A stretch of DNA of 54,848 bases from an uncultured virus (IMG/VR IMGVR_UViG_3300027847_001048) (lineage: Duplodnaviria; Heunggongvirae; Uroviricota; Caudoviricetes). The notes beneath the pieces are model-generated. The model did no database searches. It saw nothing but the letters and a program-made list of their open reading frames with translations, and was not told the DNA's origin. Positions 13,301 through 46,405 of the stretch are shown here, piece by piece; within the stretch, counting starts at the first letter, position 1, and the number at the start of each line of letters is the position of its first letter. Location: IMG/VR virus record IMGVR_UViG_3300027847_001048; one strand, given 5' to 3'. Both the position numbers and the translations under genes were made by a program.

Positions 13301-13395
13301 CCCGATTCCTGCCTGACGCAGACGGGACCAAGATCACCAAGGAGCTTCGTACTCTGGATCGTTATCTCACGAAGCAAATGGCCTACTGTGGGTGA
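10372..13395 (+). CDS. large multi-module protein with three copies of tag B and a C-terminal WGR domain; putative virion internal polyprotein
   Basis: IRLAYENPDLR, IKLAHRHPELR, IKLAYENPELR; K/E-rich linkers; YLIDAEKNNSKFYEV..V.RRWG (WGR). Confidence 0.8.
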   Translation: MSLRAQTIRLAYENPDLRATLLPLLKRKAGLEVMMAELLAESKVPKTPKGMPSGKELEKALGDFAEHVDKKDGGKEEKKARRLAFLRRLAMEHPSEKAMKEYLKEHPGADAKKHTVSESGGGAGAGPDYTDAKAVAAHAEKLTADASKKFEAGTATAQDIFDMSVFAAISQFEQMSKMEKEKASGTYRQRLVNFTQQVGLNTFAEIAEVLDSVKGMGMEELEKSGMDLEGMGVISQAMSVMVAHYGTDELQVPSGYSVESPGSRMKGGKPAEKKEEKSEKKEKKEKPKAKPSGKAKGQAAGDILATLIGHEKFDDIDEADVKALVESGQSIDDWLGDIAKGIIEKNPHMEKKVADNFGEIREAMGLPKTPEKEEKSEKKQKGGPKKEKSKAELIKDYKEAIQKSDMAPEDKKKALEQAKKPNFDPEAALGAMGDDDEEGGKQASLRGRAIKLAHRHPELRADLLRLLTAADIDVGSPRHLDALQNGIKDVKSQIKRQDQMVKVLSDIASPLGPKAVEIYVRKEKAHLDGRKQLLKALEAELKDAKSKKKADFDPENVGAESDGPLKSESDEAAYMEPNFSAQIFRELSDRQEAGQLSDGKGITEQRDPQPGRKGITAMNLRTAAIKLAYENPELRAKILPLLKTLDKSAGRNPFPDLKRYFRGAVQAAFPGPYDPKARDVIGGKDTLSYWTSMFGDSPAGWSKYTDIAIIAGDDGESLDMVYRQNASRPDAKEGWYWGAGAPGIGPWLDSRGKRLASFAKLAHEPYLKREGLTKSKVGAGEAHMFYLIDAEKNNSKFYEVLVVENPQGSGYYDVMRRWGALTDRGAGGRVDGEKYDTDPRFSGLSYREAIKNAAGHAKKRLGKKPPYISAYGPKHINPTTGKKLPMGQYPIGLVRGNAGFGWGSQAVTSCLPGLRQLQESIQRAISEAVDRDTVDLINALQEANSVVGHQIARADSTMAGKIQKLIRGPMMRAKGAPRFLPDADGTKITKELRTLDRYLTKQMAYCG

Positions 13396-14396
13396 TGCCC
13401 AATGGAACGATCATGCCTCACACATTCCTCAAGCGATTAGCGATCCGACATGCGGAGAAGACTTCGTGCCTTGCGCTTGCCGGTGAGTTTGGTGGGGACG
13501 TTTGCCTGGGAAAGAACCGGGATCGTAACTATGTCCCACCGCTTTCAGTCAACCACCTTGAGGTAGACGGCACCGAGGTCTGTATTCTTCTTGATCACTT
13601 CACCCAATGGGTCGAAGGGATGAACGAGCATGGGGTTGGATTCGTAAACTCAACCCTCGACGGACGTGCTGACGAGAGCGAAAAGGACAGGATCGAGGAA
13701 GACAGGCACATCCCTGTCGGACCACGACTACTACGAGCACTCGCTCTAAAGACTCCCCGAGAGATGGCCGAGCAGATTGGCAACGTCATTGAGTTGGAGG
13801 GTCAATCGTTCGTAGGCAACGCCGAGGAAATCTATTGGATTGAGAAGTCCCCCTGGACTCCCGCACAGATCATTCGACTCGATCCCAAAAACTACGAAGT
13901 CCGGTCTAACAATGGCGTGATCGATCCCAATGCCGGGTACACGGATGGCCGCCCGGGTGCTGGATCAGTCGCCCGGGGTGAGTTGGCCTGGACGGCGCTC
14001 CGAGAAGTGGATGACCCCCTGGAGATCATGCCAGCGTTAGCGCACCGCCCCCACGGTCAGTACAGCGACTACAACGCCTTTAGGGACGCCCCAACGGCGA
14101 AGACGTTGCGAACCCAGTCCCAGATGGTCTGCAACCTGACCCAGAAGGAGATTCTTCTCTACCTCTGTCCCGGCAAGATTGATTGGCATGGGGTGAGAAA
14201 CCAACTCGGGCGTGAACCCAAGATCAAGGTGCGTGTCTTCGAGTACGACGAGACAGACCCGATCAACCCTTCGTCGAGCCTCGTTTCAGACAACTACCTC
14301 AAGGGGAAGACCTCCAAGGGTTTGACAGCTTCCGATGATGACATCGTTGAAGCCCTCATGGCCCATAGATTTATCTCCCGATATTCCAAGGCGTAG
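13395..14396 (+). CDS. Ntn-hydrolase (Cys nucleophile, peptidase C45/C59-like) with tagged propeptide
   Basis: KTS|CLALAG..GKNRD..EGMNEHGV..N; TGATG overlap with the upstream gene. Confidence 0.75.
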   Translation: MPNGTIMPHTFLKRLAIRHAEKTSCLALAGEFGGDVCLGKNRDRNYVPPLSVNHLEVDGTEVCILLDHFTQWVEGMNEHGVGFVNSTLDGRADESEKDRIEEDRHIPVGPRLLRALALKTPREMAEQIGNVIELEGQSFVGNAEEIYWIEKSPWTPAQIIRLDPKNYEVRSNNGVIDPNAGYTDGRPGAGSVARGELAWTALREVDDPLEIMPALAHRPHGQYSDYNAFRDAPTAKTLRTQSQMVCNLTQKEILLYLCPGKIDWHGVRNQLGREPKIKVRVFEYDETDPINPSSSLVSDNYLKGKTSKGLTASDDDIVEALMAHRFISRYSKA

Positions 14397-14398
14397 GG

Positions 14399-17300
14399 AT
14401 GATGAAGGAGCCGAGCCATGAGCTTTTGGCGGTCCGCATCGCTACCCGACACGGGGAGCGACGTGTTGCCCGAGAGATCAAAGCTAAAGATTCTTCAGTC
14501 CAGATCAAAAAGTACGTTCGTTTTTCTGATCTGTTGTCGAAGACAACCAAACATATCCTCCACATGGTCAAAGGTGGGCAGGACTACCTTGGGACAGTTG
14601 TGACGGGTTCATCCTTGAGCCTCGACATCAAACGTCGTGGTTCGTCTTCTGAAGTAGCCCGAGCCTTCAAGCTGGAGATTGCAAACACCCTAAAGGACGT
14701 TGGGCACAGGGACGGCATGTACGAGCCTGTCATGGAGGCAGACAAGCCAGATAACAAGGCCCAGCAAGCCGTAGAGGGGCTACTGCACCCGATATGGGGG
14801 ATTGGACCCGATTGGGAAGACACCGCAGAGGTCGAAGAAGACTTGGAGCAGCAAGACTTCCACAAGCTCTTGGAGAAGCAGCTTCGGAGTTGGAAGGGGT
14901 CGAGCAACGGATTGCTCGTCACCAATCACGGCTACTGGCCTACGTTTCATGCGATGGTTCGTGAGGCCGTGAAACGTAAGTACGGGGGAAGGGTCCGAGC
15001 TTACAGAGGGATTCGTGGGAAACAAGCCTTGGGTATCTTGGAAGGTGCCCCCGTAAAGGTCCGCAGGGTCAGTTCGTGGGCCATTGATAAAGAAGCTGCT
15101 ATGGCATACCGAAGTGGGGTCTCCACCACCGTGGGGTCTGACTACTGGGTTGTCGTTGAAGCCATGTTCAAGCCGAAGGACATCGCTTTGGCTCCGGTGA
15201 TCCTGCCTGACTACCAAGATCCAAACATTCTTATGGAGTTAGGTCAGGACGTACAACACTCTGGGGATGAGGTCATAGTAATGTCCTCTGGAAAGATCAA
15301 CGCCAAGATAGTCTCCAAGAGCCGCAAGAAACGAGCATGGGACAAGGCAGCCAAGGCGTTCAATCTGAACGTCGGTGATCCAGTCCTCTACGGCAAGTAC
15401 AAGAACAAACGAGGCGTCATCGTTGGCTTCGGAGAAGACGAGAAGAAGAACCCGCTCGTCTACGTTGATCCAGTCCCCAAGGGGCTGAAGCACACCAAGG
15501 CCATCCAGCTATTCCGTCTCTGGTACGACAGCAGCAAAGACGAGGAAGCCGAAGCAGCCGAGCAGGCCAAGACTTTCTCGTCTCAAAGAGTTGCTGGCCG
15601 TTATGCAGCATGGAAGCTCGGGCCTAATCAACCGCTTGGCGAGTGGGATGGCACCAAGGTCAAGTACAGAACCCAGATGGGCTCTAACAAAGCGGGTGTG
15701 GTCGTCTATTACAGTCAGAAGAAGATCGGGAAAATCTGGGCGATGACGGAATACTCCACCGAGATTGCCAAAGGGAAGCTGCACTGTCAGTCCGATGTGG
15801 ACAAGTTGACTGCGAAGCACCCCCAAGTGGTGACCCCCAACGGAGCCTACCTTGGGAAAGACGAAAACGGTGACCCCATCCGAGTAGATATCCCCCGTGT
15901 TTGGGCTGCGGTTGGGTCTGTTGTGATGGATGAGTACCACGGCCAACGTATCGGTCTGAATATGTACCAAGCAATAATGCTTGAGATCTTCAAGAAGATC
16001 GGTCCGTTCATTTTCATTTCAGATGGCTGTGGATCAACCGGATCGACCTCGGCTCAAGCCAAGAGGGTCTGGGAATCCCTCTCCAGATCGATGCCCTCCA
16101 GCGGTATTTGCCTTGCTGTGTTGAAGCCCCCCAGATTACGGGTGGATAAGACTTCACACATCGCCCCTAAAGACATACATGAGGAAGCCGATTCGGTGGG
16201 GGTGACATGGGATAATGACCCCGGCTTCATGGCGTGGACCAAGAAGCTGACGGGGAAGGAGCACCTCGACGACATGAACCAGCAACAGCTATCCACAGTG
16301 ATGAAGGCTCTGGGTCGGCGTTCGGCATCCAACTACAAGCAAGCCGAAGTAAATCAACTGAAAAAAGACAGGAAGGCCCAGGAGAAGCACGTCAAGGCCG
16401 CTGCCAGAGCGTTCAAGGCTCTGCTCAAAGAGGTCGAGCCTCTCGCCCAAGCTGCCAAGGCCGAGTTCCCGGGTCGGGATAAGCAAAGTCGCCAACGGCG
16501 TGGCCGTTCGATGATGAAGAAGATCAAGACCGATGCAAGAGTGGCCGCCTATCTGGATCAATGGGTCGGTACAACCAACCACCAAAGAGAGACATACAGT
16601 TGGCGCAACGCAGTGCTCTACCAGATTCGTGATGTGTCCGTGGGCGGCGGGTCAGTACGTGACGCTCTCATCGAGGTGGGCAAACAAGCGTTCAAGGGAT
16701 TCCAGGCGATGGCGATGGCCGAAAGCCAGGGCGCTGTTCGAGAGGCTCTGCCGGAAGAGATCCGTGCCTACCTGCCGAAGAACATTGTGGTCGAGGTAGA
16801 TGATACGGGCCTCATTACTCGCATGGCCGACCGCTTCGAGAACCAACGGAACACGTTGGAACAGAAGATCAAGGTCTCGCATGATCTGGTTCGGCGCTAC
16901 AACGTCATCGCCAAGTCCGTGAAGGCCGACCTTCGTAGCTCGAATGAGATCACCAAGCTCGCAGCGATCATCACGTCTATCGTCATGGAGACCGGCATCC
17001 GACCCGGCAAGGAGGGGAACGGTGTGGTCAAGACCATCGATGGAAACGATGTCCACATCGAGACGTTTGGTGCCGTGACGTTGGGGCCAGAGCATGTCCG
17101 ATTCGTTCGGGACAACTTTGTTGACCTGGAGTTCCCCGGCAAGAAGAACACGACCAATCTTGCGTCTGTGACCAATGGTGAAGTGATTGGGATCTTGAAG
17201 GAGTACGTGAACACCGCCATCAAGGGTAAATCCAAGTACATCTTCGTCACGTCCAAGGGAGTCCGGTTCGAGGTCAAGCACCTTCAGAAATACTTTAGAT

Positions 17301-17797
17301 CCGAGGTCTTGTCTGGCATCGCTCCGACTGACTTCCGTAAGCTCAAGGCCACACAGACTGTGTTGGATAACCTTCGAGCCGAGCAGACAGAGCTATACGC
17401 CCGTATCCGTCAGTACGTTGACGACAAGGCAGATGACCTCAAATCGAAAGTCACGGCAGAGATCGTTGAGACTCTCCAACGGGCCTACGAAAACGCACAG
17501 CAGGCCCTCTCCCATAAGAACGTGTCGGAGACCATTGAGTCTTACGTCAACCCAGAGATCATCTTCCGCTTCTTGAGTCAGGGTCGGCTTGAAGACACCT
17601 TGAAGAAATCAATCCTCCAGGGTCAGTTGGCGTTGGAGTTCAACCCGCAGATCTTCATCGACCGAGCGACCGGCAAATCGGCTGCGTCTGCCTTGGTTGG
17701 GAGAGAAGCCTTTGAGATCATGGCGAAGACTCTCCAAGACCTGCTTGATGAGCTTGAAGAGACGATGAAGGAAGAGGGACAGGCTACGCCGAGGTAG
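14399..17797 (+). CDS. polyvalent protein: ADP-ribosyltransferase-like + SH3/KOW-like + GNAT-like + type IB DNA topoisomerase
   Basis: ART: YRG..SSW..DEVIV; GNAT: EYHGQRIGLNMY..SAQAKRVW; TopIB catalytic set: GIRPG, FPGKK, DFRK, LSH, SYVNP. Confidence 0.85.
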   Translation: MMKEPSHELLAVRIATRHGERRVAREIKAKDSSVQIKKYVRFSDLLSKTTKHILHMVKGGQDYLGTVVTGSSLSLDIKRRGSSSEVARAFKLEIANTLKDVGHRDGMYEPVMEADKPDNKAQQAVEGLLHPIWGIGPDWEDTAEVEEDLEQQDFHKLLEKQLRSWKGSSNGLLVTNHGYWPTFHAMVREAVKRKYGGRVRAYRGIRGKQALGILEGAPVKVRRVSSWAIDKEAAMAYRSGVSTTVGSDYWVVVEAMFKPKDIALAPVILPDYQDPNILMELGQDVQHSGDEVIVMSSGKINAKIVSKSRKKRAWDKAAKAFNLNVGDPVLYGKYKNKRGVIVGFGEDEKKNPLVYVDPVPKGLKHTKAIQLFRLWYDSSKDEEAEAAEQAKTFSSQRVAGRYAAWKLGPNQPLGEWDGTKVKYRTQMGSNKAGVVVYYSQKKIGKIWAMTEYSTEIAKGKLHCQSDVDKLTAKHPQVVTPNGAYLGKDENGDPIRVDIPRVWAAVGSVVMDEYHGQRIGLNMYQAIMLEIFKKIGPFIFISDGCGSTGSTSAQAKRVWESLSRSMPSSGICLAVLKPPRLRVDKTSHIAPKDIHEEADSVGVTWDNDPGFMAWTKKLTGKEHLDDMNQQQLSTVMKALGRRSASNYKQAEVNQLKKDRKAQEKHVKAAARAFKALLKEVEPLAQAAKAEFPGRDKQSRQRRGRSMMKKIKTDARVAAYLDQWVGTTNHQRETYSWRNAVLYQIRDVSVGGGSVRDALIEVGKQAFKGFQAMAMAESQGAVREALPEEIRAYLPKNIVVEVDDTGLITRMADRFENQRNTLEQKIKVSHDLVRRYNVIAKSVKADLRSSNEITKLAAIITSIVMETGIRPGKEGNGVVKTIDGNDVHIETFGAVTLGPEHVRFVRDNFVDLEFPGKKNTTNLASVTNGEVIGILKEYVNTAIKGKSKYIFVTSKGVRFEVKHLQKYFRSEVLSGIAPTDFRKLKATQTVLDNLRAEQTELYARIRQYVDDKADDLKSKVTAEIVETLQRAYENAQQALSHKNVSETIESYVNPEIIFRFLSQGRLEDTLKKSILQGQLALEFNPQIFIDRATGKSAASALVGREAFEIMAKTLQDLLDELEETMKEEGQATPR

Positions 17798-18041
17798 TAC
17801 CCTTCGTTGAGTGCCCAACGTACAGCACACTACTTTGGGTGTTATCCTCGATCTCCCCGTCTATTGAAATAGCAAGTTCTTCACCGTTGGATGCCCAATC
17901 TATATCCCACTCATTAGCCATAAGATGCTCGTACAGATTTCCAGCCCCCGGCTTTTCCAACGTGGGTCGGATGTACTTTACTATCGCCTCTTTCAACTCA
18001 GGGATCGTCAGATAGATCGTCTTGAGATTTGTTGTTCTCAT
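17784..18041 (-). CDS. hypothetical protein
   Basis: 85-aa ORF in an AT-richer block. Confidence 0.6.
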   Translation of the reverse strand: MRTTNLKTIYLTIPELKEAIVKYIRPTLEKPGAGNLYEHLMANEWDIDWASNGEELAISIDGEIEDNTQSSVLYVGHSTKGTTSA

Positions 18042-18261
18042 CGTTGATCCTGTTCGATAGGCTATCGAACAGGATCTCCTGTTCGATAGCAGCTATTATG
18101 GCCGCATGTATGACATTCTGGAATCTGGAATGGCTCCAGCGTTTCAGTCCTTGAGACTTCTTGAACCATTCCTTGAACTCATCATCCACATCAAAGACAA
18201 GGTTCCACGACCCGTCTTCGTTTTGGATTTCTTCCACTAACTCAAACTTTCCCAACATCTT
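17998..18261 (-). CDS. hypothetical protein
   Basis: MLGKFELVEEI.. ORF; start uncertain. Confidence 0.55.
   Translation of the reverse strand, partial: KMLGKFELVEEIQNEDGSWNLVFDVDDEFKEWFKKSQGLKRWSHSRFQNVIHAAIIAAIEQEILFDSLSNRINDENNKSQDDLSDDP
18046..18090. repeat. inverted triplication of TCCTGTTCGATAG (A, A', A)
   Basis: Forward 18048-18060, reverse 18062-18074, forward 18077-18089. Confidence 0.9.
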
Positions 18262-18787
18262 CCTTTGCATCCCAATGCCAAAAGTTGTCTTCGTCGGGGG
18301 TGAACACCCCGTTCTCATAGAACCACTTGTTCGGGCCGTCCCGTTGCACGTCTTCGTGGGCGTGTTCCAACTCTTTCATTGAGTGGATGTGGGCCTTACA
18401 GAACGAAGACCAGTTGCCCTCTTCGTTTTGGAACAGTTCGACCAGTTCGTATTCATCGTCTTCGGAGTCAGTCTCATCTTTGAGGACGAGGATCAACCCG
18501 TATTTCCAAGTGAACAATGTGATCCTCCCGTGGGATGGGGTTTTAGGATTCTTTGTCAGATTCGATAGGGTAAACCCTTTATGCCCGCCCCAATCCTCAC
18601 AAATCTCTGTATCTTCCCACTCAAGCTCGTCACCGATCTCCCAACCGAGTTGTTCCAGTAGTTTGTCTGGTAATCGGATACAGAGTTCCCCCACACCCCT
18701 ATCAGGGTCGGTGGCATCCAGGTGTTCAACCTTTACGGTCCACGCCTGTATCCCATCATTAGGAACTTTATCTTCCGGTTTCTTCAT
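18242..18787 (-). CDS. protein with AbrB/MazE-like DNA-binding domain
   Basis: GELCIRLPDKLLEQLGWEIGDELEW. Confidence 0.65.
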   Translation of the reverse strand: MKKPEDKVPNDGIQAWTVKVEHLDATDPDRGVGELCIRLPDKLLEQLGWEIGDELEWEDTEICEDWGGHKGFTLSNLTKNPKTPSHGRITLFTWKYGLILVLKDETDSEDDEYELVELFQNEEGNWSSFCKAHIHSMKELEHAHEDVQRDGPNKWFYENGVFTPDEDNFWHWDAKEDVGKV

Positions 18788-18939
18788 TGTGTAAAGGTTG
18801 TGGTCAAGGGGTTGGGCATCCGTAGAAGCAGTCTCGTTCAGGGATTGGCACGTCTGGCGGGTGTCCGGTTAGAATCCAGAACGTCACAAGGAACATTAGC
18901 ACGAAGGCTATTAGGAAAGATAAGAGGATCTTCATTGGG

Positions 18940-19122
18940 CTACCTCAATCCGTAACGCCTCGCCCGGGACTTTACGCCCTGAACTTCCTGCTCCATCCCT
19001 TGGAGTACCCTAAAGAGCCGTTCCTTCGATTCGGGTGACAGCTTCTCCAGCAACTCCACAACCAGGGGGCCGTTCTGACCTCGTTGCCGGAAGATGACAG
19101 CTTGTAGGTGGCGGTCGATCAT
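18940..19122 (-). CDS. hypothetical protein
   Basis: ATGA overlap with the upstream ORF. Confidence 0.6.
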   Translation of the reverse strand: MIDRHLQAVIFRQRGQNGPLVVELLEKLSPESKERLFRVLQGMEQEVQGVKSRARRYGLR

Positions 19123-19550
19123 CGGTTCAGGCTCCAGTTGCCATAAGAGCCGCTGCCACCGCCCGTCCCGTAGGAGCCGTGCGCTTCTCTGGGGTTGTCA
19201 CAAGCCGCATCCTCGGTGTCGTTCAGCACCGTGAGGCTCGGGAAGTATTCAGCGAGAAAGGCATCGATCTCGGCCATCGCCTCTTCCTTGGTCGCTTCCA
19301 TCCCGCTGGTGGAGTGGCCTTGACCACCGGGGCAGCTTTTGTAGCCCCAACCATCGGAGCCGTCCGTGTTGCCGAAGCCGCCCAACCAAGAGGACACGAT
19401 TGCGACCTCTTTTCCCAGACCGTTGACTCGGACGAATCTCGGGGGATGGCTGCTGTCAGGTGCCCACGGGAGGACCACCTTGTTCAAGACTTGCTGGGCT
19501 TCACGGATGGAATCAGGGTCTTGGGTGTCGAATGATGCAACGTGTTTCAT
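19119..19550 (-). CDS. hypothetical protein
   Basis: GGAG RBS; follows a class I motif. Confidence 0.7.
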   Translation of the reverse strand: MKHVASFDTQDPDSIREAQQVLNKVVLPWAPDSSHPPRFVRVNGLGKEVAIVSSWLGGFGNTDGSDGWGYKSCPGGQGHSTSGMEATKEEAMAEIDAFLAEYFPSLTVLNDTEDAACDNPREAHGSYGTGGGSGSYGNWSLNR

Positions 19551-19579
19551 GCGATGGTCTCCGTCGTTCTGTTCAATGC

Positions 19580-19606
19580 GTCTACCTTTGACAATCGGAA
19601 AGTAAC
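19580..19606 (-). promoter_or_regulatory. class I promoter-like motif
   Basis: GTTACTTT..GGTAGAC. Confidence 0.75.
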
Positions 19607-19860
19607 ACCGGGTTCAACTCGGCAAGCTGTTGACGAGCATCGATGGAGGCACGGCGCTGTCGCATCGTATCACCACCCAGCGCACGGGCACCACGGGCAC
19701 CACAGCACTTGCAGGCTCGGCAGTGAACCGAAGCGAGACGACCGATACGACCGGGCGTCACCAAGCTACCGTCCCAGCCCCACATACTACGTGCGACCCA
19801 GGTGGCTTGCGTCTTGGCTTTACGGTCTGCCCAACGGGTATGTGCGAGTCCTCGACCCAT
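19582..19860 (-). CDS. small basic Cys-cluster protein
   Basis: GGAGG RBS; HCRACKCCG. Confidence 0.65.
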   Translation of the reverse strand: MGRGLAHTRWADRKAKTQATWVARSMWGWDGSLVTPGRIGRLASVHCRACKCCGARGARALGGDTMRQRRASIDARQQLAELNPVLLSDCQR

Positions 19861-19879
19861 GTTGCCTTCCTCCTACACC

Positions 19880-19906
19880 GTCTACCCCCGACAATCGGAA
19901 AGTAAC
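19880..19906 (-). promoter_or_regulatory. class I promoter-like motif
   Basis: GTTACTTT..GGTAGAC; near-identical to the 5845 and 19580 copies. Confidence 0.75.
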
Positions 19907-19999
19907 TGAAAAAGTGTGCGGGCTTTTCACCCCGCTTGGAACCACTGTCAGTGTCGTGAGTCCGTTGCGCCACGCCTTGTTGGGCTGTCTGATTACACC

Positions 20000-20026
20000 G
20001 TCTACCCTGACGGATCGAAAGGTAAC
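20000..20026 (-). promoter_or_regulatory. class I promoter-like motif
   Basis: GTTACCTT..GGTAGAC. Confidence 0.75.
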
Positions 20027-20081
20027 AAACTTTCGTAAGTGCTCGGAATCATTGGTCTTTTTCGATTGCTTGAGATTCCTT

Positions 20082-20108: not shown

Positions 20109-20163
20109 GTTGTGAGAGGCGGGGGTTTGGAGCGAATCGCCCACTCCGTTTCTCAACTCTCTC

Positions 20164-29099: not shown

Positions 29100-29857
29100 A
29101 CGCCAGGGAAGCCGCAGGCACCTACGTTCAACTCTCCCGTGAAGAGTTCCAAGACTGGCTCGATTCCAAGGGCTACCGGGGGAAGTGGAAGATCAAGCCG
29201 GGTACGTCAGGCGTCTATTTGGTGCCCTTGAGTGACACCGTTTGGCTCTACATAAACTCGACTACCGGGAAGCAAGAACAGGTCATGGGCCGGGGCCGTG
29301 CTGCGATGAGCATGATGCTCGTCAGCAGGACCACCGACAAGGTGATCCTTGGCGCACAGAAGCTCATGGGCCAAAAGCACTTCAAGCGAACCCTCAACTG
29401 GAGGGCGACCTGGGGCAAAGGCTTGGATCGAGCCAAGGCCACCTACACGAAGTCCCAGTCGTTCTACGATGCGGTCGCCGAGATTGCCGACCGGGACAAA
29501 TACAAGATCGATATGCTCCACTTGATTGAGAGCGTCGTTGGATGGGATCAAGACTCGTTTCTGCTCGACATGCACAGCAAGGTCAAGCGGGGAGGGATCA
29601 TAACCAAGGGACAGACCGAGACGATTCGGGGAAGGGAGAGCGGGGCACCGATGACGCCCGCACCCGGGCCATCCGTCTCGACCCTCAATGAGATTGAACG
29701 ACTGCGAGAGCTATATGCCGCAGCACGAAGGTCGGATGATGATTGGACAATGACCTTTTCACAATCTCTCGGTGAGCAGCTAAAGCGGGGCCGTCCCCTA
29801 TCACCCAAGCAAGAGAAAGTGCTGAAGGACAAGTACAGGCGTTACAGAATCCAGTGA
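29096..29857 (+). CDS. hypothetical protein
   Basis: ATGA overlap; duplicated F..(D/S)....KRG..(I/L)(T/S)..Q motif near the C-terminus. Confidence 0.75.
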   Translation: MNAREAAGTYVQLSREEFQDWLDSKGYRGKWKIKPGTSGVYLVPLSDTVWLYINSTTGKQEQVMGRGRAAMSMMLVSRTTDKVILGAQKLMGQKHFKRTLNWRATWGKGLDRAKATYTKSQSFYDAVAEIADRDKYKIDMLHLIESVVGWDQDSFLLDMHSKVKRGGIITKGQTETIRGRESGAPMTPAPGPSVSTLNEIERLRELYAAARRSDDDWTMTFSQSLGEQLKRGRPLSPKQEKVLKDKYRRYRIQ

Positions 29858-30509: not shown

Positions 30510-31358
30510 ATGAAGCCGTCCACACAGCGAATCGCATACAGACATCTCTTGAAGTCCACCAAGACCGCAGGCCCGGGGCTGCCCCAAGAGGGTGATATTC
30601 TCCGAGCGAAGCCCCGAAGGATGCCCAACTTTGAGAAGTGGTTGAGCCAAGCAACTGATAGAGACAAAGCCTTCCCTGGCACCGGCCCAGATCTAAAGCG
30701 GATCTATGGGCATATTGCGTTTGCGATCCAAGAATACTACGAGATGGGGCAGTCGAGTAACCCAAAAGGTCTGGTCAGTGATGTGGAAGCAACCCTTTAC
30801 GACATAGACCAGATGGTTGACGTGAACGGGGACGACATCATGCCCTCGTTTCCAAGATCAAAGGTTATGAAGGAACTCTGGGACTGGCACAACGCAGCTT
30901 ATCGGAACGTCTTGCCCGAAAACGATCTGCGACTTCAGAAGAAAGCCGCAGGCGGCAAGGCCCGTGCGGAGATCCATATCCGGCGAGGCAACTTATTCTT
31001 TTTCCTGTCTTCCCATATCGAGAAGGCGAAGCCTCCGATCAACGAGTACATCCAATATCATTCCGTCGATCAGGACTACAAAGCCCTAATGAAGATGGTG
31101 GGTAAGGCGAAAAAGGCTCTTGCAGGCATGAAGCGGGTGGACCTTGGGAAGCTCCTCGATGTTGGGCCAATCGGTCCAACCGTTCAGACAAGCCCGAACG
31201 AAGTGTTTACATGGTTGGATCTCGGGGACGCTGCCGTGCTGAACCCCGGCAACGATGGCGAAGTCGGTCAACGAACCGAACTGATCGGTCTCGATGCCGC
31301 TATCCCAGACATCATCAAGGCTCTTGAAGGTATCGGCATCCCGGTACAGGTCAAATAG
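30510..31358 (+). CDS. tag A-bearing hypothetical protein
   Basis: MKPSTQRIAYRHLLKSTKTA; AGGAG RBS. Confidence 0.8.
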   Translation: MKPSTQRIAYRHLLKSTKTAGPGLPQEGDILRAKPRRMPNFEKWLSQATDRDKAFPGTGPDLKRIYGHIAFAIQEYYEMGQSSNPKGLVSDVEATLYDIDQMVDVNGDDIMPSFPRSKVMKELWDWHNAAYRNVLPENDLRLQKKAAGGKARAEIHIRRGNLFFFLSSHIEKAKPPINEYIQYHSVDQDYKALMKMVGKAKKALAGMKRVDLGKLLDVGPIGPTVQTSPNEVFTWLDLGDAAVLNPGNDGEVGQRTELIGLDAAIPDIIKALEGIGIPVQVK

Positions 31359-31367: not shown

Positions 31368-32183
31368 ATGGCTGTTCCTTCCCATATCCGAGTTGCATAC
31401 CGCTACCTCACTGCACGTAGCCCCGGCTTGAACAAACGAGTCTTGGGCCAACTCATTGAGATGGAAGCAGAGTCGCTTTCGGGCGAAGGCTTGACCATTT
31501 ACGACATTCCACGGGATGTGCTGACCGAAGCCTCCCAGTACAGCGGGGCCGTATGGAAGGCACTCAGCAGTTGGGCGAAGGCGGTCCCCGAGACATTCGA
31601 CGGTCCAAACTGGGATATGGGAATCAGTCCCAGAGAGATTGCCGATACCTTGATGGAAGAAGAAGCGGCCTACCTGTATTTCATGGAGGCTGAAGGGCAC
31701 GGGGTTGGTACTTGGGATGGCCGATGGGACCGTCTTGTAACGTCAGACAAACACCTCAAAGCTCTTTCTAAAGACGTTGCAAAACGTACTTCTCGACAAC
31801 AGGGCAAACTGAAAGACGCTATCTTCAATGCTGCCAATGAGTTGGTTGAGTCGCACAAGACAGCCTCCAAGCAAGCCTCCGCTTACGACGAGATGATGGG
31901 GCGGTTCGACAAGGGCGAGTCAGGCATCCTCTTTACGTCCAAGAACAAGCAGCTTGAGGTCTTCCCCAAGAACGGAAAGAACTTCAACCTCGCCGAAGCC
32001 CAGAAGCATGTCGGGGGTTACGTCCAACTCGTTTACGCACGGGTCATGGGTAAGAAGGCTCTGATCCTCATGGACGAAGAGGGTCAACTGAAGGGACAGA
32101 CGCTCAATCGAGGTGCCTCCCAGTTGGCAAATATGCCGCTGGTCGGTGATGTCCTTTTCTGCCGATCCAAGATGTTCAAGTGA
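31368..32183 (+). CDS. tag A-bearing protein with C-terminal DUF3846-like domain
   Basis: MAVPSHIRVAYRYLTA; AQKHVGGYVQLV..DEEG.LK...N..AS..LVGDV. Confidence 0.75.
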   Translation: MAVPSHIRVAYRYLTARSPGLNKRVLGQLIEMEAESLSGEGLTIYDIPRDVLTEASQYSGAVWKALSSWAKAVPETFDGPNWDMGISPREIADTLMEEEAAYLYFMEAEGHGVGTWDGRWDRLVTSDKHLKALSKDVAKRTSRQQGKLKDAIFNAANELVESHKTASKQASAYDEMMGRFDKGESGILFTSKNKQLEVFPKNGKNFNLAEAQKHVGGYVQLVYARVMGKKALILMDEEGQLKGQTLNRGASQLANMPLVGDVLFCRSKMFK

Positions 32184-33356: not shown

Positions 33357-34331
33357 ATGGACCGAGCGGTTAGAGTCATCTACGGACCGACCGGTGGCCG
33401 CTTCCCTTTCATGTCAGGTGTAATCGACGCTGTTGAGTCATTCTTATCAGATAACGACATAAGCATTTACGACAGGATTGGGGTTTCGGGCGGGTCGCTG
33501 ACGGCAGCAATCAAAGCCAGTGGAACGCCGTTCCCTGAATGGATGGCTTCCGCATCCTCTCTACGACACGAAGTCGAGATCGGCGGCAGCAAGAGTCGCT
33601 TACTGAAGAATCTTTGGTGGTTCGCCAGTTCCGGTGGCCTCCTAAACTCCAAGGTCGTTCTAAAACGCATGTTTCATCAGGTCGCCCCCCGACCTCCACA
33701 AGACGCCCCTTGCTATGCGGTCTCTTGGTGTTCCTCTGCTCGTAAGGGCGTTGCGTTCTCCTTGGGAGAGGACTTGGACATAGCGACGTGTCTATTAGCC
33801 TCATGTGCTCTTCCTTTTGCCTTCTCCCCCGTCAGGGTTCTGAACAAACGGCTCCCGTTGCGGGTGCAGCAGCTTCTTGGTGTTACCCACAAGCCCAACC
33901 TGCACTCGACCTTCAAGGACGGCGGCTTGGCTTCTGACTGGGTTGGAGATCTTGTACTGGGGACGCCGTTGGATCTTCCGACAGTCGTTGTATCCATCGA
34001 AGGCGACCCACCAAAATCGGGGAACCCCCTGACACGCCTCGCCCTGACAGTCATCAAGAGCAAGACTCTGGACGGCATTGAAAATGCCTCCCGCTCCCGC
34101 CCAGTTCATCTCATCGACATCTCTTGCCCCGCTCCCGTGAACGAGTTTGCAGCCCGCTTCGATATTACGAAAGAAGAAGGGCTGTGGCTCTACGGGATGG
34201 GACTTACCGAAGGACAGAAAGCCATCGTCAGAATGGGTCGAGACATTCTTGCCAGCTTCCCCCGCCTCGCTGATCCAGACCTCACAGATTCCGACAACAT
34301 GATGAGTTCTCCTATACAGGCTTCCTTGTAG
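33357..34331 (+). CDS. patatin-like phospholipase
   Basis: GVSGGS nucleophile elbow, ASCALP and DGG. Confidence 0.85.
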   Translation: MDRAVRVIYGPTGGRFPFMSGVIDAVESFLSDNDISIYDRIGVSGGSLTAAIKASGTPFPEWMASASSLRHEVEIGGSKSRLLKNLWWFASSGGLLNSKVVLKRMFHQVAPRPPQDAPCYAVSWCSSARKGVAFSLGEDLDIATCLLASCALPFAFSPVRVLNKRLPLRVQQLLGVTHKPNLHSTFKDGGLASDWVGDLVLGTPLDLPTVVVSIEGDPPKSGNPLTRLALTVIKSKTLDGIENASRSRPVHLIDISCPAPVNEFAARFDITKEEGLWLYGMGLTEGQKAIVRMGRDILASFPRLADPDLTDSDNMMSSPIQASL

Positions 34332-34395
34332 GAACAGCCTTGTAGGAACAGCCTTGTAGGAAGGGTCATCCAGGGAAAAGAAGGGTCATCCAGGG
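34324..34395 (+). repeat. short tandem/direct repeats
   Basis: CCTTGTAGGAACAG x~2.8, then GAAGGGTCATCCAGGG x2. Confidence 0.9.
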
Positions 34396-34401
34396 GAATC
34401 T

Positions 34402-35240: not shown

Positions 35241-35641
35241 TAGCCACCCGTGCTCGCTCGGATTCGAGCGAAGTGCTCTGTCTGTTGCTTGGACAACAAG
35301 GCAGTTTGTAGGTGGTCCAGGTTCAAAGCCATGAGGGATTTGAGGAAGCTGCATGAAGCAGCGTCTTTGGGTGTACTGATACGATGGAGGTCCAACCCTT
35401 GTTCGGTCTTGTTTATGACCAACTCAAAGGACGTGGCCGCCACCCCCGGTCCTATCACATAGCCGATGAAGAGGAACTGATTGGGTTCCTCCAGGGCAGT
35501 GATTTCCTCGACGGTGATCCGATAGGGGATTGTCACGTCGAAGGTAAACACCGAATCCGCTTGTTTGATGATGGCCGCCAAAGACGGGCGAAGGTCAGGT
35601 CTTTCATACGATAGCTTTATCAGCTTCTCTTTCAGCGTCAT
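35240..35641 (-). CDS. tag B-bearing hypothetical protein
   Basis: MTLKEKLIKLSYERPDLRPSLAAIIKQA; AGGAG RBS. Confidence 0.75.
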   Translation of the reverse strand: MTLKEKLIKLSYERPDLRPSLAAIIKQADSVFTFDVTIPYRITVEEITALEEPNQFLFIGYVIGPGVAATSFELVINKTEQGLDLHRISTPKDAASCSFLKSLMALNLDHLQTALLSKQQTEHFARIRASTGG

Positions 35642-40850: not shown

Positions 40851-41833
40851 TTGTTAGCTCCAACAGCCAGATGGCGTAAGGCGACACGTCGCTTCATTCG
40901 ATCTTCGTTCAAGATCTTGCCCGCCTTCACTGCGTAGTATGCGTCCTGCCTGCTGACACCTTCACTGATGAGGTGCTTCATGGCGTCACGTTCGTTGTGG
41001 TACTGAAGAACCTGGGCGGCTCGATCCATGAGCTTCTCGTCTACTGCTGCGATTCGCAGGCTCGCTTTGATGGACCGCTCGCCTTTAGACGTTAGGAACC
41101 AGATCTCAAAAGCGGGGGTCTCACGGACGGAAGCAACCTCTTTATCGACGAGCTTTTGCCGCATTAGGTCCAAGAGGATCTTCTCGATCTCCCGAGAGCC
41201 CATACGGCTATCAAAATACTTGCGGATGTCTGCTTCGATGGAGCCAATAGTGCCGCCGTCATGGAGCACTTTCAGCACCATGTCCTGCTTCTCTTCTTTG
41301 CTTTGCCCCGCTGTTCGCCCACCCCGAGATTGCAACTTTCGCAGCTTCTTGGAGAGAGGCTCTAACTCCGAAAGAGCATCCCACAGCACGCTCTGGGTCA
41401 TACTCAAAGTAGGTGCCGCCCACTTGATGTCTTTGATCTGCTCAATGGCCCAGTCTACGTCTTCCAGATACCCCGACCTAAAGATGGGATCATCCATAAA
41501 CCCTCTCGGCTTTGCCAGCCGACCAAGGAGTACCGCCAATGGCTTGTAAGCCTTTCTGGTCATGTCAACGGCGTTGGCGACCTCATGTAGATCGTCGCTA
41601 AAACTCGATAGAGATCTTTGTCCTGCTCTCTTGCCACGCTTTCGCTTCTGCCGGTTGCCGGTGTCGTCCATCCACTCATCGTTGAGCTTCTTCGTGAGGC
41701 CGCACCGCTTCACTGCGTCCAAGGACTCATCCATGCCGTTGCTTTTGAGTACCCGAAGCAGTTGGCCCAAAAGCTCTGGACCGTTCTCTTTGTTGAACGC
41801 TGTTCGACTCACGATTGCACCTCGACTTTCCAA
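40847..41833 (-). CDS. tag A-bearing hypothetical protein
   Basis: C-terminal MKRRVALRHLA; internal KRA/RTA sites; start uncertain. Confidence 0.7.
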   Translation of the reverse strand: MESRGAIVSRTAFNKENGPELLGQLLRVLKSNGMDESLDAVKRCGLTKKLNDEWMDDTGNRQKRKRGKRAGQRSLSSFSDDLHEVANAVDMTRKAYKPLAVLLGRLAKPRGFMDDPIFRSGYLEDVDWAIEQIKDIKWAAPTLSMTQSVLWDALSELEPLSKKLRKLQSRGGRTAGQSKEEKQDMVLKVLHDGGTIGSIEADIRKYFDSRMGSREIEKILLDLMRQKLVDKEVASVRETPAFEIWFLTSKGERSIKASLRIAAVDEKLMDRAAQVLQYHNERDAMKHLISEGVSRQDAYYAVKAGKILNEDRMKRRVALRHLAVGANK

Positions 41834-42234
41834 CCCCGACTCTTTAGATCGTCAATGAGGTCGTGGACTGTGGTGTTCAACTCGACGTAGGTAGAGCTTT
41901 CAAAGCCCAGCTTGCCACCATCGACAGTTATTGTGGTTGAGTAGGGGTCGCCCAGTTTTCTGCCGGTCGTCGGACCCGTTGGCTCGTACCCCTTGAGAGC
42001 GGCGATGAGGTCTTTCCCAAAACGACTCAAATACAGCTTACGGTGGCCCCCTGACAGGACATCCTTTCCAGAAGCCACCTCAAATATGAGGAACACAGGA
42101 AGGTCTGACAGGCTTGGGCTACCGAGGTTTGCACCATTGATCGTCACCCGTTGGCTCTTCCAAAGCCCTGCGGTGACGTAGCGGCTGGAGACCCTCGCTG
42201 CGTCTGGCCTTTTCTGTGTTTTAGGCTGGGTCAT
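41809..42234 (-). CDS. tag A-bearing hypothetical protein
   Basis: ATG 42234 after AGGAG; PDAARVSSRYVTA. Confidence 0.7.
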   Translation of the reverse strand: MTQPKTQKRPDAARVSSRYVTAGLWKSQRVTINGANLGSPSLSDLPVFLIFEVASGKDVLSGGHRKLYLSRFGKDLIAALKGYEPTGPTTGRKLGDPYSTTITVDGGKLGFESSTYVELNTTVHDLIDDLKSRGWKVEVQS

Positions 42235-42256
42235 GTTTGCTCCTACCAACGGTTGT

Positions 42257-42286
42257 CCTACCAACGGTCGGCTTATAGAAGGACTA
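42257..42286 (-). promoter_or_regulatory. class II promoter-like motif
   Basis: TA-gtccttc-TAT-N13-GTAGG, with a duplicated downstream 13-mer. Confidence 0.55.
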
Positions 42287-43942
42287 CCTCTTGAAGATAC
42301 GGGCGAGGGCTTCCTTGTGTTCTTTGGCAAGCTGGTTCAACGCCCGAAAGCCTACCGCTTCGCAGAAGTGCTCTTCGGCGTTCGTGGAAGCATAGCTGGA
42401 GGGGAAGGGTGCGAGCTTGGAGTGCCTGCGAAGCATGTCCTTGTACCAAGACACTTTGGCCCTCCGCCCCTCTGGTATCCCTGGAATGTCGATGCCGATG
42501 ACATCGGCAGGACGATCTGGTGGACGGTTGTTCTTCAAGTCGTACCGGATGCTCGCTTGCCCCGGCTTGGTGGTGACGTACTTGCGCTTCCCAATCTGCC
42601 ACTTGACTCCGAAGGGCACAGGGTCGCCAACTTTGACGGGCCACCACTCGGAGATGTCGGCTCGCTTGTTGGACATCTCAAGATGGCGCAGTCCCCACTC
42701 CTTCTTGGCTGCGGGATCAGCGAACTTCTGCCAGTAGCGATGAGATAGTTCGTGGATCAAGCTGTGAACGGGGTCTTCTTTCATCCGCTTGTCTGTTCGG
42801 AGATAAACCCGATCCTCTGAAGAGTTGTACCAAGCCAGGGTACGGGCACCCCGTAACGATCCAACCAAGTAGATGTCCCCATAGAGAGCTTTACGGAAGC
42901 CAGGGATCTTGGACCCCGGGCCTACCTTGGAGGCTTTGTTGATGATGTCCTTGAAGGAGTCCAGCCGCTTACCCTCGACTCCTTCTGTGTTGTGTACGGT
43001 GAACTTCCCAACCTTGAAGGTCTGGTCAGTGTCGGCACCCTCACCGGTTAGCTTACGCCACGTCTTCCCGTCCTCAACGATCTCCCGCCCGTAACGTAGA
43101 CTCTTTTCGTGGCGTTGGGACCAAGTGAAGATCTGCCGGGGGAACCGCTTGGCGGTCATAAAGATGCGAGCGAATGACGTGAACTTCCTCGCTTCCGCTT
43201 TGGGAACCTCATGCTGGTGCATGGCGATGTCAGCGAGCGTGAGGCCAGCGTTCATCATCTCAACCCAAGGGTTGTTCACCACCCGTTTGATTAGGTTGGT
43301 CGTAGATCTGGTGAACTTCATCTCGTAGAGGCCGTCAATGGGCAGACCGGCCCTTTCGGTCATCCGATGGACCTCGTTTATGGCCCGGTCAAAGCTATCT
43401 AAAGCGTTGTCATATTCATCCTGCGCCTCAAAGAGAGTGGTCTCGGTGGCGGTCCTGCTCTTGAACTCTTGCCGGAGCGCATAGAGGTCCACTTCGACGG
43501 GTGTCATGTATCGGTCGGCAACTCGGGTAGCACTGGCGGTGTGGATTCTGACACTGGAAATGTCAGATTTGATACCTGGAGCTATAGAGGCGCGGTGCTT
43601 TTGGATCATCCCGACCTTCGAGACGCCATCATCTGCGATGTCCCCGTAGACGTATTCATCAATGATTTCAGCAGCATAAGACTGGACGGTCCTCCAAGCC
43701 TTCTCGTCGGTGTGGTACTGGAAGCCTCCCTGGTGGAAGAAATCATGCCCATGATCCACCAGATCTTCTGCCATACCGAGCGGCACATCCTTGAGTTCCC
43801 AGAGAACGAAGGTGTCCCGACCGTAGAGATTCCAATGGTCCAACTGACGCCCCATGAGCGTGTCGTCCGTACACCCGTAGAGTTCGTCTCCGTCAGGCCC
43901 GTACACGCAGGCGATCATGTCTATGGTCGCAATATCGGCCAC
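42284..43942 (-). CDS. tag A-bearing protein with C-terminal zincin metallopeptidase (lethal-factor-like)
   Basis: SATRVADRYM; LIHELSHRYW..PSSYASTNAEEHFCE. Confidence 0.75.
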   Translation of the reverse strand: MADIATIDMIACVYGPDGDELYGCTDDTLMGRQLDHWNLYGRDTFVLWELKDVPLGMAEDLVDHGHDFFHQGGFQYHTDEKAWRTVQSYAAEIIDEYVYGDIADDGVSKVGMIQKHRASIAPGIKSDISSVRIHTASATRVADRYMTPVEVDLYALRQEFKSRTATETTLFEAQDEYDNALDSFDRAINEVHRMTERAGLPIDGLYEMKFTRSTTNLIKRVVNNPWVEMMNAGLTLADIAMHQHEVPKAEARKFTSFARIFMTAKRFPRQIFTWSQRHEKSLRYGREIVEDGKTWRKLTGEGADTDQTFKVGKFTVHNTEGVEGKRLDSFKDIINKASKVGPGSKIPGFRKALYGDIYLVGSLRGARTLAWYNSSEDRVYLRTDKRMKEDPVHSLIHELSHRYWQKFADPAAKKEWGLRHLEMSNKRADISEWWPVKVGDPVPFGVKWQIGKRKYVTTKPGQASIRYDLKNNRPPDRPADVIGIDIPGIPEGRRAKVSWYKDMLRRHSKLAPFPSSYASTNAEEHFCEAVGFRALNQLAKEHKEALARIFKR

Positions 43943-43945
43943 CCG

Positions 43946-46405
43946 TTATCTCCCGCAGACGTGGTGTTGTTTGGCTGTGTAAACGTCAGCCACGAACGAA
44001 GCAGCCCGAAGGTCGAAGCTCTCGGTGATGTAGATCTTGCGGATCTGCCGTAGCTCTTGAGCGATACCCCTCTCGGGTTCCCCGTCAAGCCAACGCTGTT
44101 GGAGGTGACGGCAAAACGACGGGAGGCCCAGCAAGTCTTCGTGTTCACCCTCGGCATCCAAGGACACAGCCTCTTCAACCAAGGCTTCGATGGTCAGGAA
44201 GTGCTTGGAGATGCAATCGGAGCAACGCTTCTCTGGGTGGTTGAGGTGGTCTTCCAGCAGAACGATCTGCTTACAGACTTCCCGCATGTTGTAGAGCGGG
44301 GACATTAGAGGGAGAGCAGCGGTCTTCATGGGGGGTCTCCGAGCGGCTTTCATGCCGAATAGATCGGTGTTGAGGCTGGCCCTTGAGGATGCGATTCGTT
44401 GGGCGGCCCTTACGCTGACAGAGCCAGACTTCTGACGGTGGATGATCTGTCCCCGTACCTTTGGGCCGTCATAAAACCACTCGCCTGGGTTGTAGGCTTC
44501 ATAAACATCGGCAGTAGAGACCTTCGCTTTCAACACGACCGTCTCTTCTTCCTCTACTGCGGCGATATGTTCTGCGTGCCCAAGGGCAAACTTCTTCGTT
44601 CTGGTCACGTAATCCATTGGCTGGAAATGAGTGACCTCTGCAAGCACGCCCCGGTAGACCGTAACCTTGGAGAGCGGCCACGTACCTAACTCTGCAAGGC
44701 TCTTTCCCTTCTGTCGGGCGGCAGAACGCTTTGAACTGTGGTCCTTCAAGATCTGGCTGCGGAGAAGCTCTTTGAGCTTACGCCCCTTGTTGACCAAGGA
44801 CGGATCAGCGAGCAAAGCATGGCGACCGTACTCTGTGAGCCAACCACCGAGTTGACCGAGCCCCTTCTTGTCCAACTGGAGGGCCACCATCATCTCACCA
44901 AAGAACTTCTTGTCCTTGTATACGTTGCCAGGATTCTTCAGCCCACCAAGGAAGACGGTCGCCTCGTCCTGGGACAAGCCAATGGAGATCTCACGGAAGC
45001 GCAATCTCTCTTTAGGCTTGAGGAAGGATATTGTGCCGCCAACAGCGAGACCAACGTCCATGAGGTCGAACATATAGACGAAGCCCTTTTCACGGGCATG
45101 GTTGACCATGAACGATCCAAAGGTCTTCGGATGCTCCTGCATCATCTCCTTGAGGACATCGAGAACACCCAGGTCAGCCATGACATCGAGTGCCTTCTTG
45201 TACTGGGGGTTGTCCAAGATGACAGTCTTCAGGACGGTCTCTGTCTTGGAGGGGATACGTTTGAGTCCCTTGGCCTGACGCCTCGCAGCGGCAGCCGTAT
45301 CCTTGGGGAGCTTGAAGCCATACTTGAAGGCGAACTTGATCGTTCGGATGATACGGGTCGGGTCTTCCTTGAAAGTCTCATCGGGCTCCCTCGGACAACG
45401 CATCTCCCGGTTCTCAAGGTCTTTGAGCCCACACCCGGTCAGATCGATGATCTCTGCTTTGTCTGGACCGTTAGCCAAGTCCGTCAGCCGCCACATCAGA
45501 GTATTGAACGTAAACTCCCTACGGGTGGCATCATCTTCAAGAGTAGTAGGTTCGACACGGATGGGTTTGTGCCCGACGTAATCTCCCGTCGTAGGGTCTA
45601 CCTCGTATTCTTCCTTGCGAGCATTGACGATCTCAATGACCTCGCCTTCCATCTCGTAGCCATCGAGTTCCCACTGACCCTCGATGAAGATCTTGGATAC
45701 CATCAAGTTGTCAGTGACAACCTTGGTCCGAGTAGGCACAGCACGACTAATCCCGTCAGCAACCCATTCAGCGTCCTTCCCACGCATAGAGAGGGAGTCC
45801 ACCACCATGTCGATGTCCTTGATAGGCTCATCAAGTACGAAGTTGCGAACCGCCCCACCTACTACATAGACGTGACGAGCTACACCGAGCTTCTTGGTGA
45901 CTTTAGAGAGCCACTTCATCAACACCAGAGATTCAGCGTCCGTCGAAGCAACCCTGGTTTCCTCGTTTATCACTCGAACAACCTCCAAAGCATTTGGGTT
46001 GTATGTCTGGTTACCCACAGTGCTCTGCCAACCCTCCATCCAGAACCCGGCAGCACCCTTGTCGATAGCTTCCTGCCCCCAACGGTTGACGGCATCAATG
46101 AGGGATTCCCCACGGTGCATCATACGAGCCGTTCTCTTCAGATACTTGAAGCCCGGTTTCACACGAACCTCAAGTAAGGCACCACTTGGATGATATATCT
46201 GGGCATCCCCAGGTTTGTCTGTGGTCGAGATACTGGACAAGTCATGTACGAAGGTAGACTTATCCTGTTTACCACGGGGTAGCTGAAGCCCTTTACGAAG
46301 GATGTACGGCACCCTGTCCCAAGACGTTGCGTGGTACTGGACACGGGGCATCCTTCCGACCTTCAAGTAACGGTCAGCAACCTTATGGGGAGAGCCTTCG
46401 TTCAT
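43946..46405 (-). CDS. polyvalent protein: ART-like + class II tRNA nucleotidyltransferase (CCA/poly(A) polymerase family) + ART-like + Cys/His domain
   Basis: VVGGAVRN..DIDMV, RREFTFN, EDPTRIIR; YHATS..IL.KGL; VYRG..DYVT..GEWFY; start reassigned to ATG 46405 (GAGG RBS, MNEGSPHKVADRYL). Confidence 0.85.
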   Translation of the reverse strand: MNEGSPHKVADRYLKVGRMPRVQYHATSWDRVPYILRKGLQLPRGKQDKSTFVHDLSSISTTDKPGDAQIYHPSGALLEVRVKPGFKYLKRTARMMHRGESLIDAVNRWGQEAIDKGAAGFWMEGWQSTVGNQTYNPNALEVVRVINEETRVASTDAESLVLMKWLSKVTKKLGVARHVYVVGGAVRNFVLDEPIKDIDMVVDSLSMRGKDAEWVADGISRAVPTRTKVVTDNLMVSKIFIEGQWELDGYEMEGEVIEIVNARKEEYEVDPTTGDYVGHKPIRVEPTTLEDDATRREFTFNTLMWRLTDLANGPDKAEIIDLTGCGLKDLENREMRCPREPDETFKEDPTRIIRTIKFAFKYGFKLPKDTAAAARRQAKGLKRIPSKTETVLKTVILDNPQYKKALDVMADLGVLDVLKEMMQEHPKTFGSFMVNHAREKGFVYMFDLMDVGLAVGGTISFLKPKERLRFREISIGLSQDEATVFLGGLKNPGNVYKDKKFFGEMMVALQLDKKGLGQLGGWLTEYGRHALLADPSLVNKGRKLKELLRSQILKDHSSKRSAARQKGKSLAELGTWPLSKVTVYRGVLAEVTHFQPMDYVTRTKKFALGHAEHIAAVEEEETVVLKAKVSTADVYEAYNPGEWFYDGPKVRGQIIHRQKSGSVSVRAAQRIASSRASLNTDLFGMKAARRPPMKTAALPLMSPLYNMREVCKQIVLLEDHLNHPEKRCSDCISKHFLTIEALVEEAVSLDAEGEHEDLLGLPSFCRHLQQRWLDGEPERGIAQELRQIRKIYITESFDLRAASFVADVYTAKQHHVCGR

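Follow-up and report, generated by a model that had tools for sequence, protein, structure and literature searches.

A seven-residue peptide with the consensus [RK][VI]Ax[RK][YFHW]L, designated tag A, was found to mark protein termini and module borders in the phage lineage that includes a 54,848 nt stretch of DNA from the uncultured virus IMGVR_UViG_3300027847_001048 (hereafter the window; 49 hand-curated proteins, 14,316 residues). From sequence comparisons, we consider it reasonably probable that tag A forms an amphipathic helix by which cargo proteins are drawn into the prohead core, there to be trimmed and split at [KR]xA sites by the prohead protease. An earlier note on this DNA had quoted ten such peptides on otherwise unrelated proteins, all of which were found at the positions it gave, and had read them as a portable helical tag that docks cargo for packaging and injection; this interpretation is probably right in outline. 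Genes are named by their start position in the window (e.g. 13395, 14399 and 46405).

The lineage to which the window belongs consists of uncultured phages of 300-500 kb, which are kin of phage G. Two window proteins led to related IMG/VR contigs (four and nine loci, 33-57% identity), and a window protein matched LR745208.1, an unannotated uncultured phage of 485 kb, with 46.8% identity. The comparison set included nine records (G001-G009) and three named records, each in full, and the genes of the relatives were predicted with a simple codon-score caller that took the first start codon. Bacillus phage G and Tunturiibacter phage Tunturi_5 are cultured relatives, with the same head gene order as the lineage. 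The capsid protein of the relatives (identity 40% with phage G gp27 and 49% with the Tunturi_5 protein) belongs to the PHROG 2522/phage G gp27 family (6WKK, E = 1e-64) and is encoded in 545 IMG/VR stretches; the capsid-locus counts given below refer to the best 80 of these 545 loci. No head genes were found in the window.

The strict pattern R[VI]AxR[YH] matched six times in 5 of the 49 window proteins (shuffle mean 0.02, the observed value being reached in 0/2000 shuffles), and the looser [RK][VIL][AS]xR[YHF] matched ten times in 9 of the 49 (0.26 in shuffles), both patterns having been devised post hoc, after the data had been seen; one of the ten looser matches fell within a copy of a second tag, tag B. 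Because of the post hoc choice of the patterns, a matrix was trained on four other phages (G005, G007, LR745208 and G003; 42 strict seeds, grown to 56 in a single round), with the window excluded from training, and was then scored on the window. This held-out matrix yielded six matches of at least 12 bits in six of the 49 proteins (shuffle mean 0.16, maximum 1, 100 shuffles), in agreement with the claim that the motif exceeds its shuffled background. Six of the quoted peptides scored between 12.6 and 27.4 bits, the one in 40847 scored 8.5, the internal one in 14399 scored 5.2, and both of those in 13395 were below 7. At the same threshold of at least 12 bits, 20 tags were detected in 15/341 proteins of G005, 19 in 19/261 of G007, 28 in 25/552 of LR745208 and 6 in 6/116 of G003, in addition to 3/228 tagged proteins in G008 and 2/56 in G001 (shuffles 0-2). 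An unguided gapped-word search returned the tag class as the top word in G007 (16/257 proteins, 1.7 expected), and in LR745208 the same search placed it outside the top ten.

These counts make it very improbable that tag A arose by chance, from biased composition or from the in-frame reading of a mobile DNA repeat. Points that would fit such an origin are the shortness and basic character of the motif, the scores below 7 bits of three of the ten peptides, and the frame-blind counts of the DNA pattern, which were not clearly over controls. The shuffles and the held-out test speak against it, however, and codons vary freely at synonymous positions across ten copies, indicating that tag A is conserved as protein and not as DNA; for the six strong copies this explanation is refuted.

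The highest-scoring copy, RIAYRHL followed by KTA-G, is at the N-terminus of 30510 (core 30528-30548, feature 30528..30572, + strand; 27.4 bits), a protein with no usable match in the ESM Atlas. RVAYRYL opens 31368 (tag 31389..31409, +; 20.3 bits), a protein of two domains linked by KTAS-KQAS (31857-31880), with a DUF3846 match; the database call for this gene (31368-32183, +), P0108, begins at a later Met and loses the tag, and gene calls that start at a later Met will in general hide N-terminal tags. RIATRHG is at the N-terminus of 14399 (14435..14455, +; 19.1 bits), a multidomain protein of 1132 residues with a C-terminal topoisomerase IB (Topoisom_I, E = 8.8e-12), which also contains the internal copy RVAGRYA, within SSQRVAGRYA (15587..15607, +; 5.2 bits). 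The remaining strong copies are on the opposite strand: KVADRYL at the N-terminus of 46405 (46364..46384, -; 16.2 bits), RVADRYM after HTA-S inside 43942 (core 43505-43525, feature 43505..43543, -; 14.6 bits), where it opens a putative HEXXH zincin module, and RVSSRYV at the N-terminus of 42234 (42175..42195, -; 12.6 bits). The 46405 product is a CCA-type nucleotidyltransferase polyprotein (PolyA_pol, E = 8e-16), with [KR]xA joints at its module borders (RSA-A, 44717-44728, and KTA-A, 44315-44326, both -) and a decayed tag, RVASTDA (45935..45955, -), where the CCA module begins; relatives have a full tag at that position.

The C-terminal copy RVALRHL of 40847 (40868..40888, -) scored 8.5 bits; at the N-terminus of the same protein (41700-41833, -), RTA-FNKENGPELL matches KEA-FNKENPIELM of G007 and is perhaps a third leader type. 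The two weak peptides of 13395, each below 7 bits, are RLAIRHA in its leader (core 13434-13454, feature 13434..13469, +), followed by KTS and Cys25, and RFISRYS at its C-terminus (14367..14387, +), which fits the loosest pattern only. Judging by its sequence, this leader is a possible propeptide of an Ntn-hydrolase-like protein, whose removal would expose Cys25 as the nucleophile; the match of 13395 to NCBIfam C45 (E = 0.022) is far short of the cut-off. Lon, the amidase, sigma and the small class I genes, which had been described as untagged, gave no matches of at least 7 bits.

The position of the tags was analyzed in a list of 82 tags (73 proteins, five genomes), which holds some likely false matches and in which crude start calls undercount the N-terminal ones. 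Thirty-nine were within 30 residues of an end of the open reading frame, compared with 16.7 expected; by place, 22 were N-terminal, 17 C-terminal (several of them 10 residues or fewer from the end) and 43 internal. The internal copies fell between homology blocks, as expected from the proposal that the tag sits at termini or between domains and not in domain cores. The homology blocks of 14399 stop at residue 376 and resume at residue 401, with the internal tag at 397; in 43942 the tag is at residue 140 and the block begins at 161-162; both G003 and LR745208 have stand-alone homologues, which start with the tag.

Tag B, with the consensus IRLAY.NP.LR..LLPLL followed by KxA, was present in five copies in three window proteins: three in 10372 (10375-10461, 11692-11787 and 12220-12321, all +), one at the N-terminus of 35641, ending in KQA-D (35555..35638, -), and a degenerate one at the N-terminus of 3830 (3830..3919, +). 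Seven homologues were compared for the first domain of 31368: three had tag A in front, one had tag B in front, one had tags behind and two had no clear tag, indicating that tags A and B are interchangeable on that domain family. A tag variant without Arg5 was observed in G008 (KVADAYL, KVAAAYM and KVAASFL). The Tunturi_5 word [KR][IVLM]AAx[IVLM] (15 occurrences, 1.7 expected) was rejected as a tag, as it was located mostly inside ordinary proteins.

The statement that the carriers share nothing else was not sustained: they also share [KR]xA joints, the interchangeable second tag and, in relatives, an origin in head-operon polyproteins. The earlier note had overlooked the [KR]xA sites, as well as the fact that tag A itself starts with such a site. 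The motif, whose residue classes were picked by eye, occurred 5-14 residues after the tag in 17/67 cases (5.5 at random, 0/1000 reaching the observed value), with a peak at +7/+8, and its observed/expected density was 1.19 in untagged proteins, as against 1.52 in those with tag A and 2.3 in those with tag B. Ala was found at +9 to +11 after the tag in 48/86 cases (18.3 expected), a partly circular result given that the matrix covers +9 and +10. Throughout the lineage, [KR]xA fills the scaffold and the ends of the protease: scaffold homologues (n = 107) had a median of 15 sites, the next residue being mostly Ser or Ala, and the protease N-termini retain MAF[LM][KR][YH]A and [VI]R[TV]AS. Head-operon proteins were among the most [KR]xA-enriched in phage G (gp7, gp19 and gp4) and in Tunturi_5, and dense [KR]xA was seen in phage G gp4, gp5, gp7, gp11, gp19 and gp21 (3934-19728) and in Tunturi_5 gp328, gp332, gp348 and gp350.

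From this distribution we infer that the prohead protease cuts at [KR]xA. The protease of the relatives matched PHROG 18299 (E = 1.9e-10, LR745208). The top fold match of its model was T4 gp21 (5JBL; Z = 7.0, root-mean-square deviation 3.6, 128 aligned, Foldseek E = 0.022), and the comparison with the varicella-zoster protease gave Z = 5.2, neither Z being decisive; herpes proteases cleave after Ala. The PF04586 profile detected the protease in 0/5 records, and a profile of the protease found no match among the PDB sequences. The capsid sequence KLA-A was dropped as a candidate cut site, since the solved phage G chain retains the aligned region (280 residues).

Because tag A begins with a [KR]xA site, it could be an extended prohead-protease site only (R-V-A, cut, x-R-aromatic-L), with the head cargo entering via another signal. 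Of 102 tags, 46% have Ser or Ala at position 4, and the tag at one module joint of 46405 has decayed to RVA-S, as would be expected for a cut site. On the other hand, position 4 accepts bulky residues and a second site often follows, 17 of the 82 tags are so close to the C-terminus that a cut there would free nothing, and phage G and Tunturi_5 have [KR]xA without such an extension. The idea that tags with a bulky position 4 require a second site was unsupported (14/42 vs 7/17, p = 0.57). We regard an exclusive protease-site function as rather unlikely; the helix-tag and protease-site roles may both hold.

A likeness to tag A was noted in the scaffold, whose most conserved stretch, KA.KC[IV]R[IL]A..[ML]LG[KR]xAS, shares with tag A the Arg1, the hydrophobic residue 2, Ala3, Leu7 and the subsequent [KR]xA site. 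Using the strict-seed matrix, with zero scaffolds in training, this helix was the best-scoring site in 40/73 scaffold variants and among the top three in 65/73. A conserved head-operon gene bears tags without Arg5 (RVASAYI and RVAAAFI), near the scaffold form, and the protease C-terminus has a similar [IV]R[LV][AG].LL helix. The scaffold model gave no Foldseek match at E of 0.001 or below. A scaffold-mimicking or encapsulin-like loading peptide would bind the scaffold or the inner capsid face; the likeness of tag A to the scaffold helix is one of sequence.

The link to the head was traced in the relatives. The head operon of LR745208 has the order terminase, portal, protease, presumed scaffold, presumed decoration protein and capsid (PHROG 2522), the scaffold being named from position and composition without a family match. 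G005 encodes, between portal and protease, a 3098-residue protein that has KTA joints and, at its module borders, six tags, and of which the CCA-type nucleotidyltransferase, the HEXXH module and a small module of 14399 in the window are parts. Topoisomerase IB-like modules were located between portal and protease in G005, G007 and LR745208, and in LR745208 a gene of its own, adjoining that of the portal, encodes the last module of 46405. Conserved head-operon genes between portal and capsid were tagged in three genomes. Tags of at least 14 bits were present in 42 of the 80 capsid-gene loci, including 31 of the 38 loci of at least 12 kb, and the capsid-gene strand carried 52 of the 53 unique tags of these loci. 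In LR745208, tag A or B was found in 6/46 head-region, 2/29 tail-region and 2/54 replication-region proteins, a modest contrast. Large insertions, probably inteins, were observed in the G005 portal (142792-146070) and in three proteases (L210, L172 and L023), and residues 552-613 of 10372 (12025-12210, +) resemble the middle of a core protein encoded upstream of the protease in relatives.

This distribution also bears on the alternative that tag A docks on a non-virion partner (such as a chaperone of the phage, a replication compartment or a host protein). In its favour, the positions of tagged genes are spread over the genomes, and a helicase, a topoisomerase and a CCA enzyme could all act in mid infection. 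The UvrD-like helicase and its neighbour (25599-29857, +) are a conserved pair, and in LR745208 and G008 their homologues have tag-like peptides and KTA sites at the end; the tag-like C-termini of the UvrD homologues would suit a non-virion partner, although, together with the KTA sites, they mean that the helicase may also be head cargo. A non-virion partner is nevertheless quite unlikely in view of the tagged portal-capsid genes of three genomes, the strand and locus bias, the [KR]xA link and the mostly untagged replication-region genes of LR745208.

Several observations weigh against prohead loading by tag A. Since the window is without head genes, the head link rests on the relatives, and many tagged genes, those of the window included, are far from the head operon; weak matches in LR745208 are also on tail-region (2/29) and replication-region (2/54) proteins. 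The homologous capsid loci and scaffolds are non-independent samples. Four records, all fragments (G002, G004, G006 and G009), had zero matches of at least 12 bits, and at this threshold tag A was not enriched in phage G (1/620 proteins) or Tunturi_5 (0/303; shuffles 0-2), even though both share the capsid family and [KR]xA; no cultured phage bearing tag A was found. Fifty of the 67 tags had no [KR]xA within 14 residues. The scaffold helix has a median of only 4.1 bits among variants that are kin, and it has neither Arg5 nor the aromatic residue; it lies at the end of helix 1 in a three-helix domain that was modelled with confidence (predicted local distance difference test 90-97, residues 81-140) and may therefore be buried, in which case its likeness to the tag may be just that of amphipathic helices. 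Weak matches were also obtained on four paralogues of about 1200 residues in LR745208 (50131, 91815, 98076 and 125054), which have near the C-terminus a tag-like helix without the aromatic residue, RVAxRQLAKA.RDPLLEFL.

On balance, loading into the prohead core followed by processing is still the interpretation that we favour. Tag A would bind the scaffold core or assemble together with it, probably through the same site as the helix end of the scaffold itself, R[IL]AxxML; the prohead protease would cut at [KR]-x-A beside, and perhaps within, the tag, releasing single enzymes from polyproteins; and the freed enzymes would remain in the head and be injected. About half of the confidence placed in this interpretation goes to the scaffold as the candidate tag receptor, and the other half to a non-scaffold virion receptor (capsid protein, portal, protease or other core protein). 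A more specific version is held tentatively and seems somewhat doubtful: the tag may be a copy of the scaffold assembly-helix end plus a cut site, forming with tag B a two-tag, position-independent loading code by which the lineage would inject a changeable enzyme kit (CCA-adding enzyme, topoisomerase IB and peptidases), for which a protein would need to gain no more than seven residues, terminally or between domains. As for the portable helical packaging tag proposed earlier, its non-chance occurrence, portability, head-operon link and scaffold-like register were supported, whereas packaging, injection and the docking partner are what we infer from them.

Other elements were recorded in the DNA itself. 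Two promoter-like classes have a common downstream [GA]GTAG-like element and differ only in the upstream box. Class 1 is GTTACTTT..-N-GGTAG, with the element present in 13/14 pattern matches, and class 2 is TA[GT]-N-YTAT-N-GGTAG, which precedes some tagged genes and also the UvrD and patatin genes. Promoter-like sites in the window are at 5871-, 6554+, 6796+, 7272+, 19606-, 19906-, 20164+, 20510+, 50134-, 53227-, 53439-, 53701+ and 53796+, and at 3373+, 25540+, 33301+ and 42288-. One promoter pattern was discarded as a marker of tagged genes: in G007 it was found in 11/16 tagged and 23/145 untagged leaders, but it failed in the window (0/6 vs 5/23) and in three other genomes. Short direct repeats were found upstream of 34402 (34326-34400, +; three CTTGTAGGAACAGC-like and two GAAGGGTCATCCAGGG copies) and of 42234 (about 42245-42275, -; two copies of CCGTTGGTAGGA).

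If prohead loading by tag A is true, the tag would predict which unannotated proteins of this widespread lineage travel in the head and become active during the first minutes of infection, offering a direct route to counter-defence and RNA-repair enzymes, and, unlike that of T4, it may work at either end of the cargo. As yet uncharacterised, the prohead protease of the phage G lineage, its two cultured phages included, would gain a testable specificity from the [KR]xA motif. No description of tag A or of a [KR]xA protease motif was found in the literature searched, which included few subscription papers and excerpts of PMC7824862, PMC13282480, PMC8570332, PMC11924767 and PMC12484599, and a term search of excerpted phage G supplements found no peptide table.

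Among known systems, the carriers of tag A resemble phage polyvalent proteins, which, according to excerpts of Iyer et al. 2017 (PMC5512222), are encoded beside the portal, are predicted to be packaged and injected, and combine many disparate enzyme domains per chain, HEXXH zincins and 2H-like domains among them. Several disparate effector domains per chain were found in 14399, 46405, 10372 and the 3098-residue protein of G005, and 43942 has HELSH and a later Glu, without a Pfam, PHROG or NCBIfam match. Homologous modules are encoded beside the portal and terminase in G005, G007 and LR745208, though not in the window. Unlike the polyvalent proteins of those excerpts (MuF fusion and MPTase autoproteolysis), the proteins described here have a linker tag, and their modules also occur as separate tagged genes; MuF had no match among the 45 window and 22 LR745208 proteins scanned, the G005 polyprotein being outside the scan. 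Head proteins of the SPN3US/phiKZ type, cut by gp245, are similar in their many internal head proteins, repeated protease motifs and preference for Ser after the cut, but, in the available excerpts of PMC10052503, they are cut after Glu, have N-terminal propeptides, belong to a different head lineage and are described without a shared helical tag. Phage G and Tunturi_5 share with the lineage the capsid family and the order of the head genes, and in them too the scaffold, the protease and neighbours are rich in [KR]xA.

A close parallel is the T4 capsid targeting sequence, which gp21 removes and in which, as excerpted from PMC9026906, ten N-terminal residues target IPIII, processing takes place at residues 8 and 10, and there is affinity for the core. 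As with the sequence on IPI-III and Alt in the same excerpts, a short, portable peptide is attached to proteins that are unrelated and often basic, by a putative prohead-protease site; a scaffold-core affinity is proposed, the cargo set is variable and the protease, a gene seen in relatives only, may have a gp21-like fold, to judge from its weak fold match. In contrast to that N-terminal 10-mer, tag A occurs at N-termini, at C-termini and between modules, up to six per chain; its sequence differs and goes with [KR]xA, whereas the excerpts have gp21 cutting after Glu; and, instead of the gp23 shell and gp22 core, the lineage has a phage G-type capsid, with an interchangeable second tag besides. 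Tag A would work like the T4 sequence but is not one, as it differs in position, Glu site and head type; it is probably a portable loading-type tag akin to it, distinct in sequence, placement and associated cut motif.

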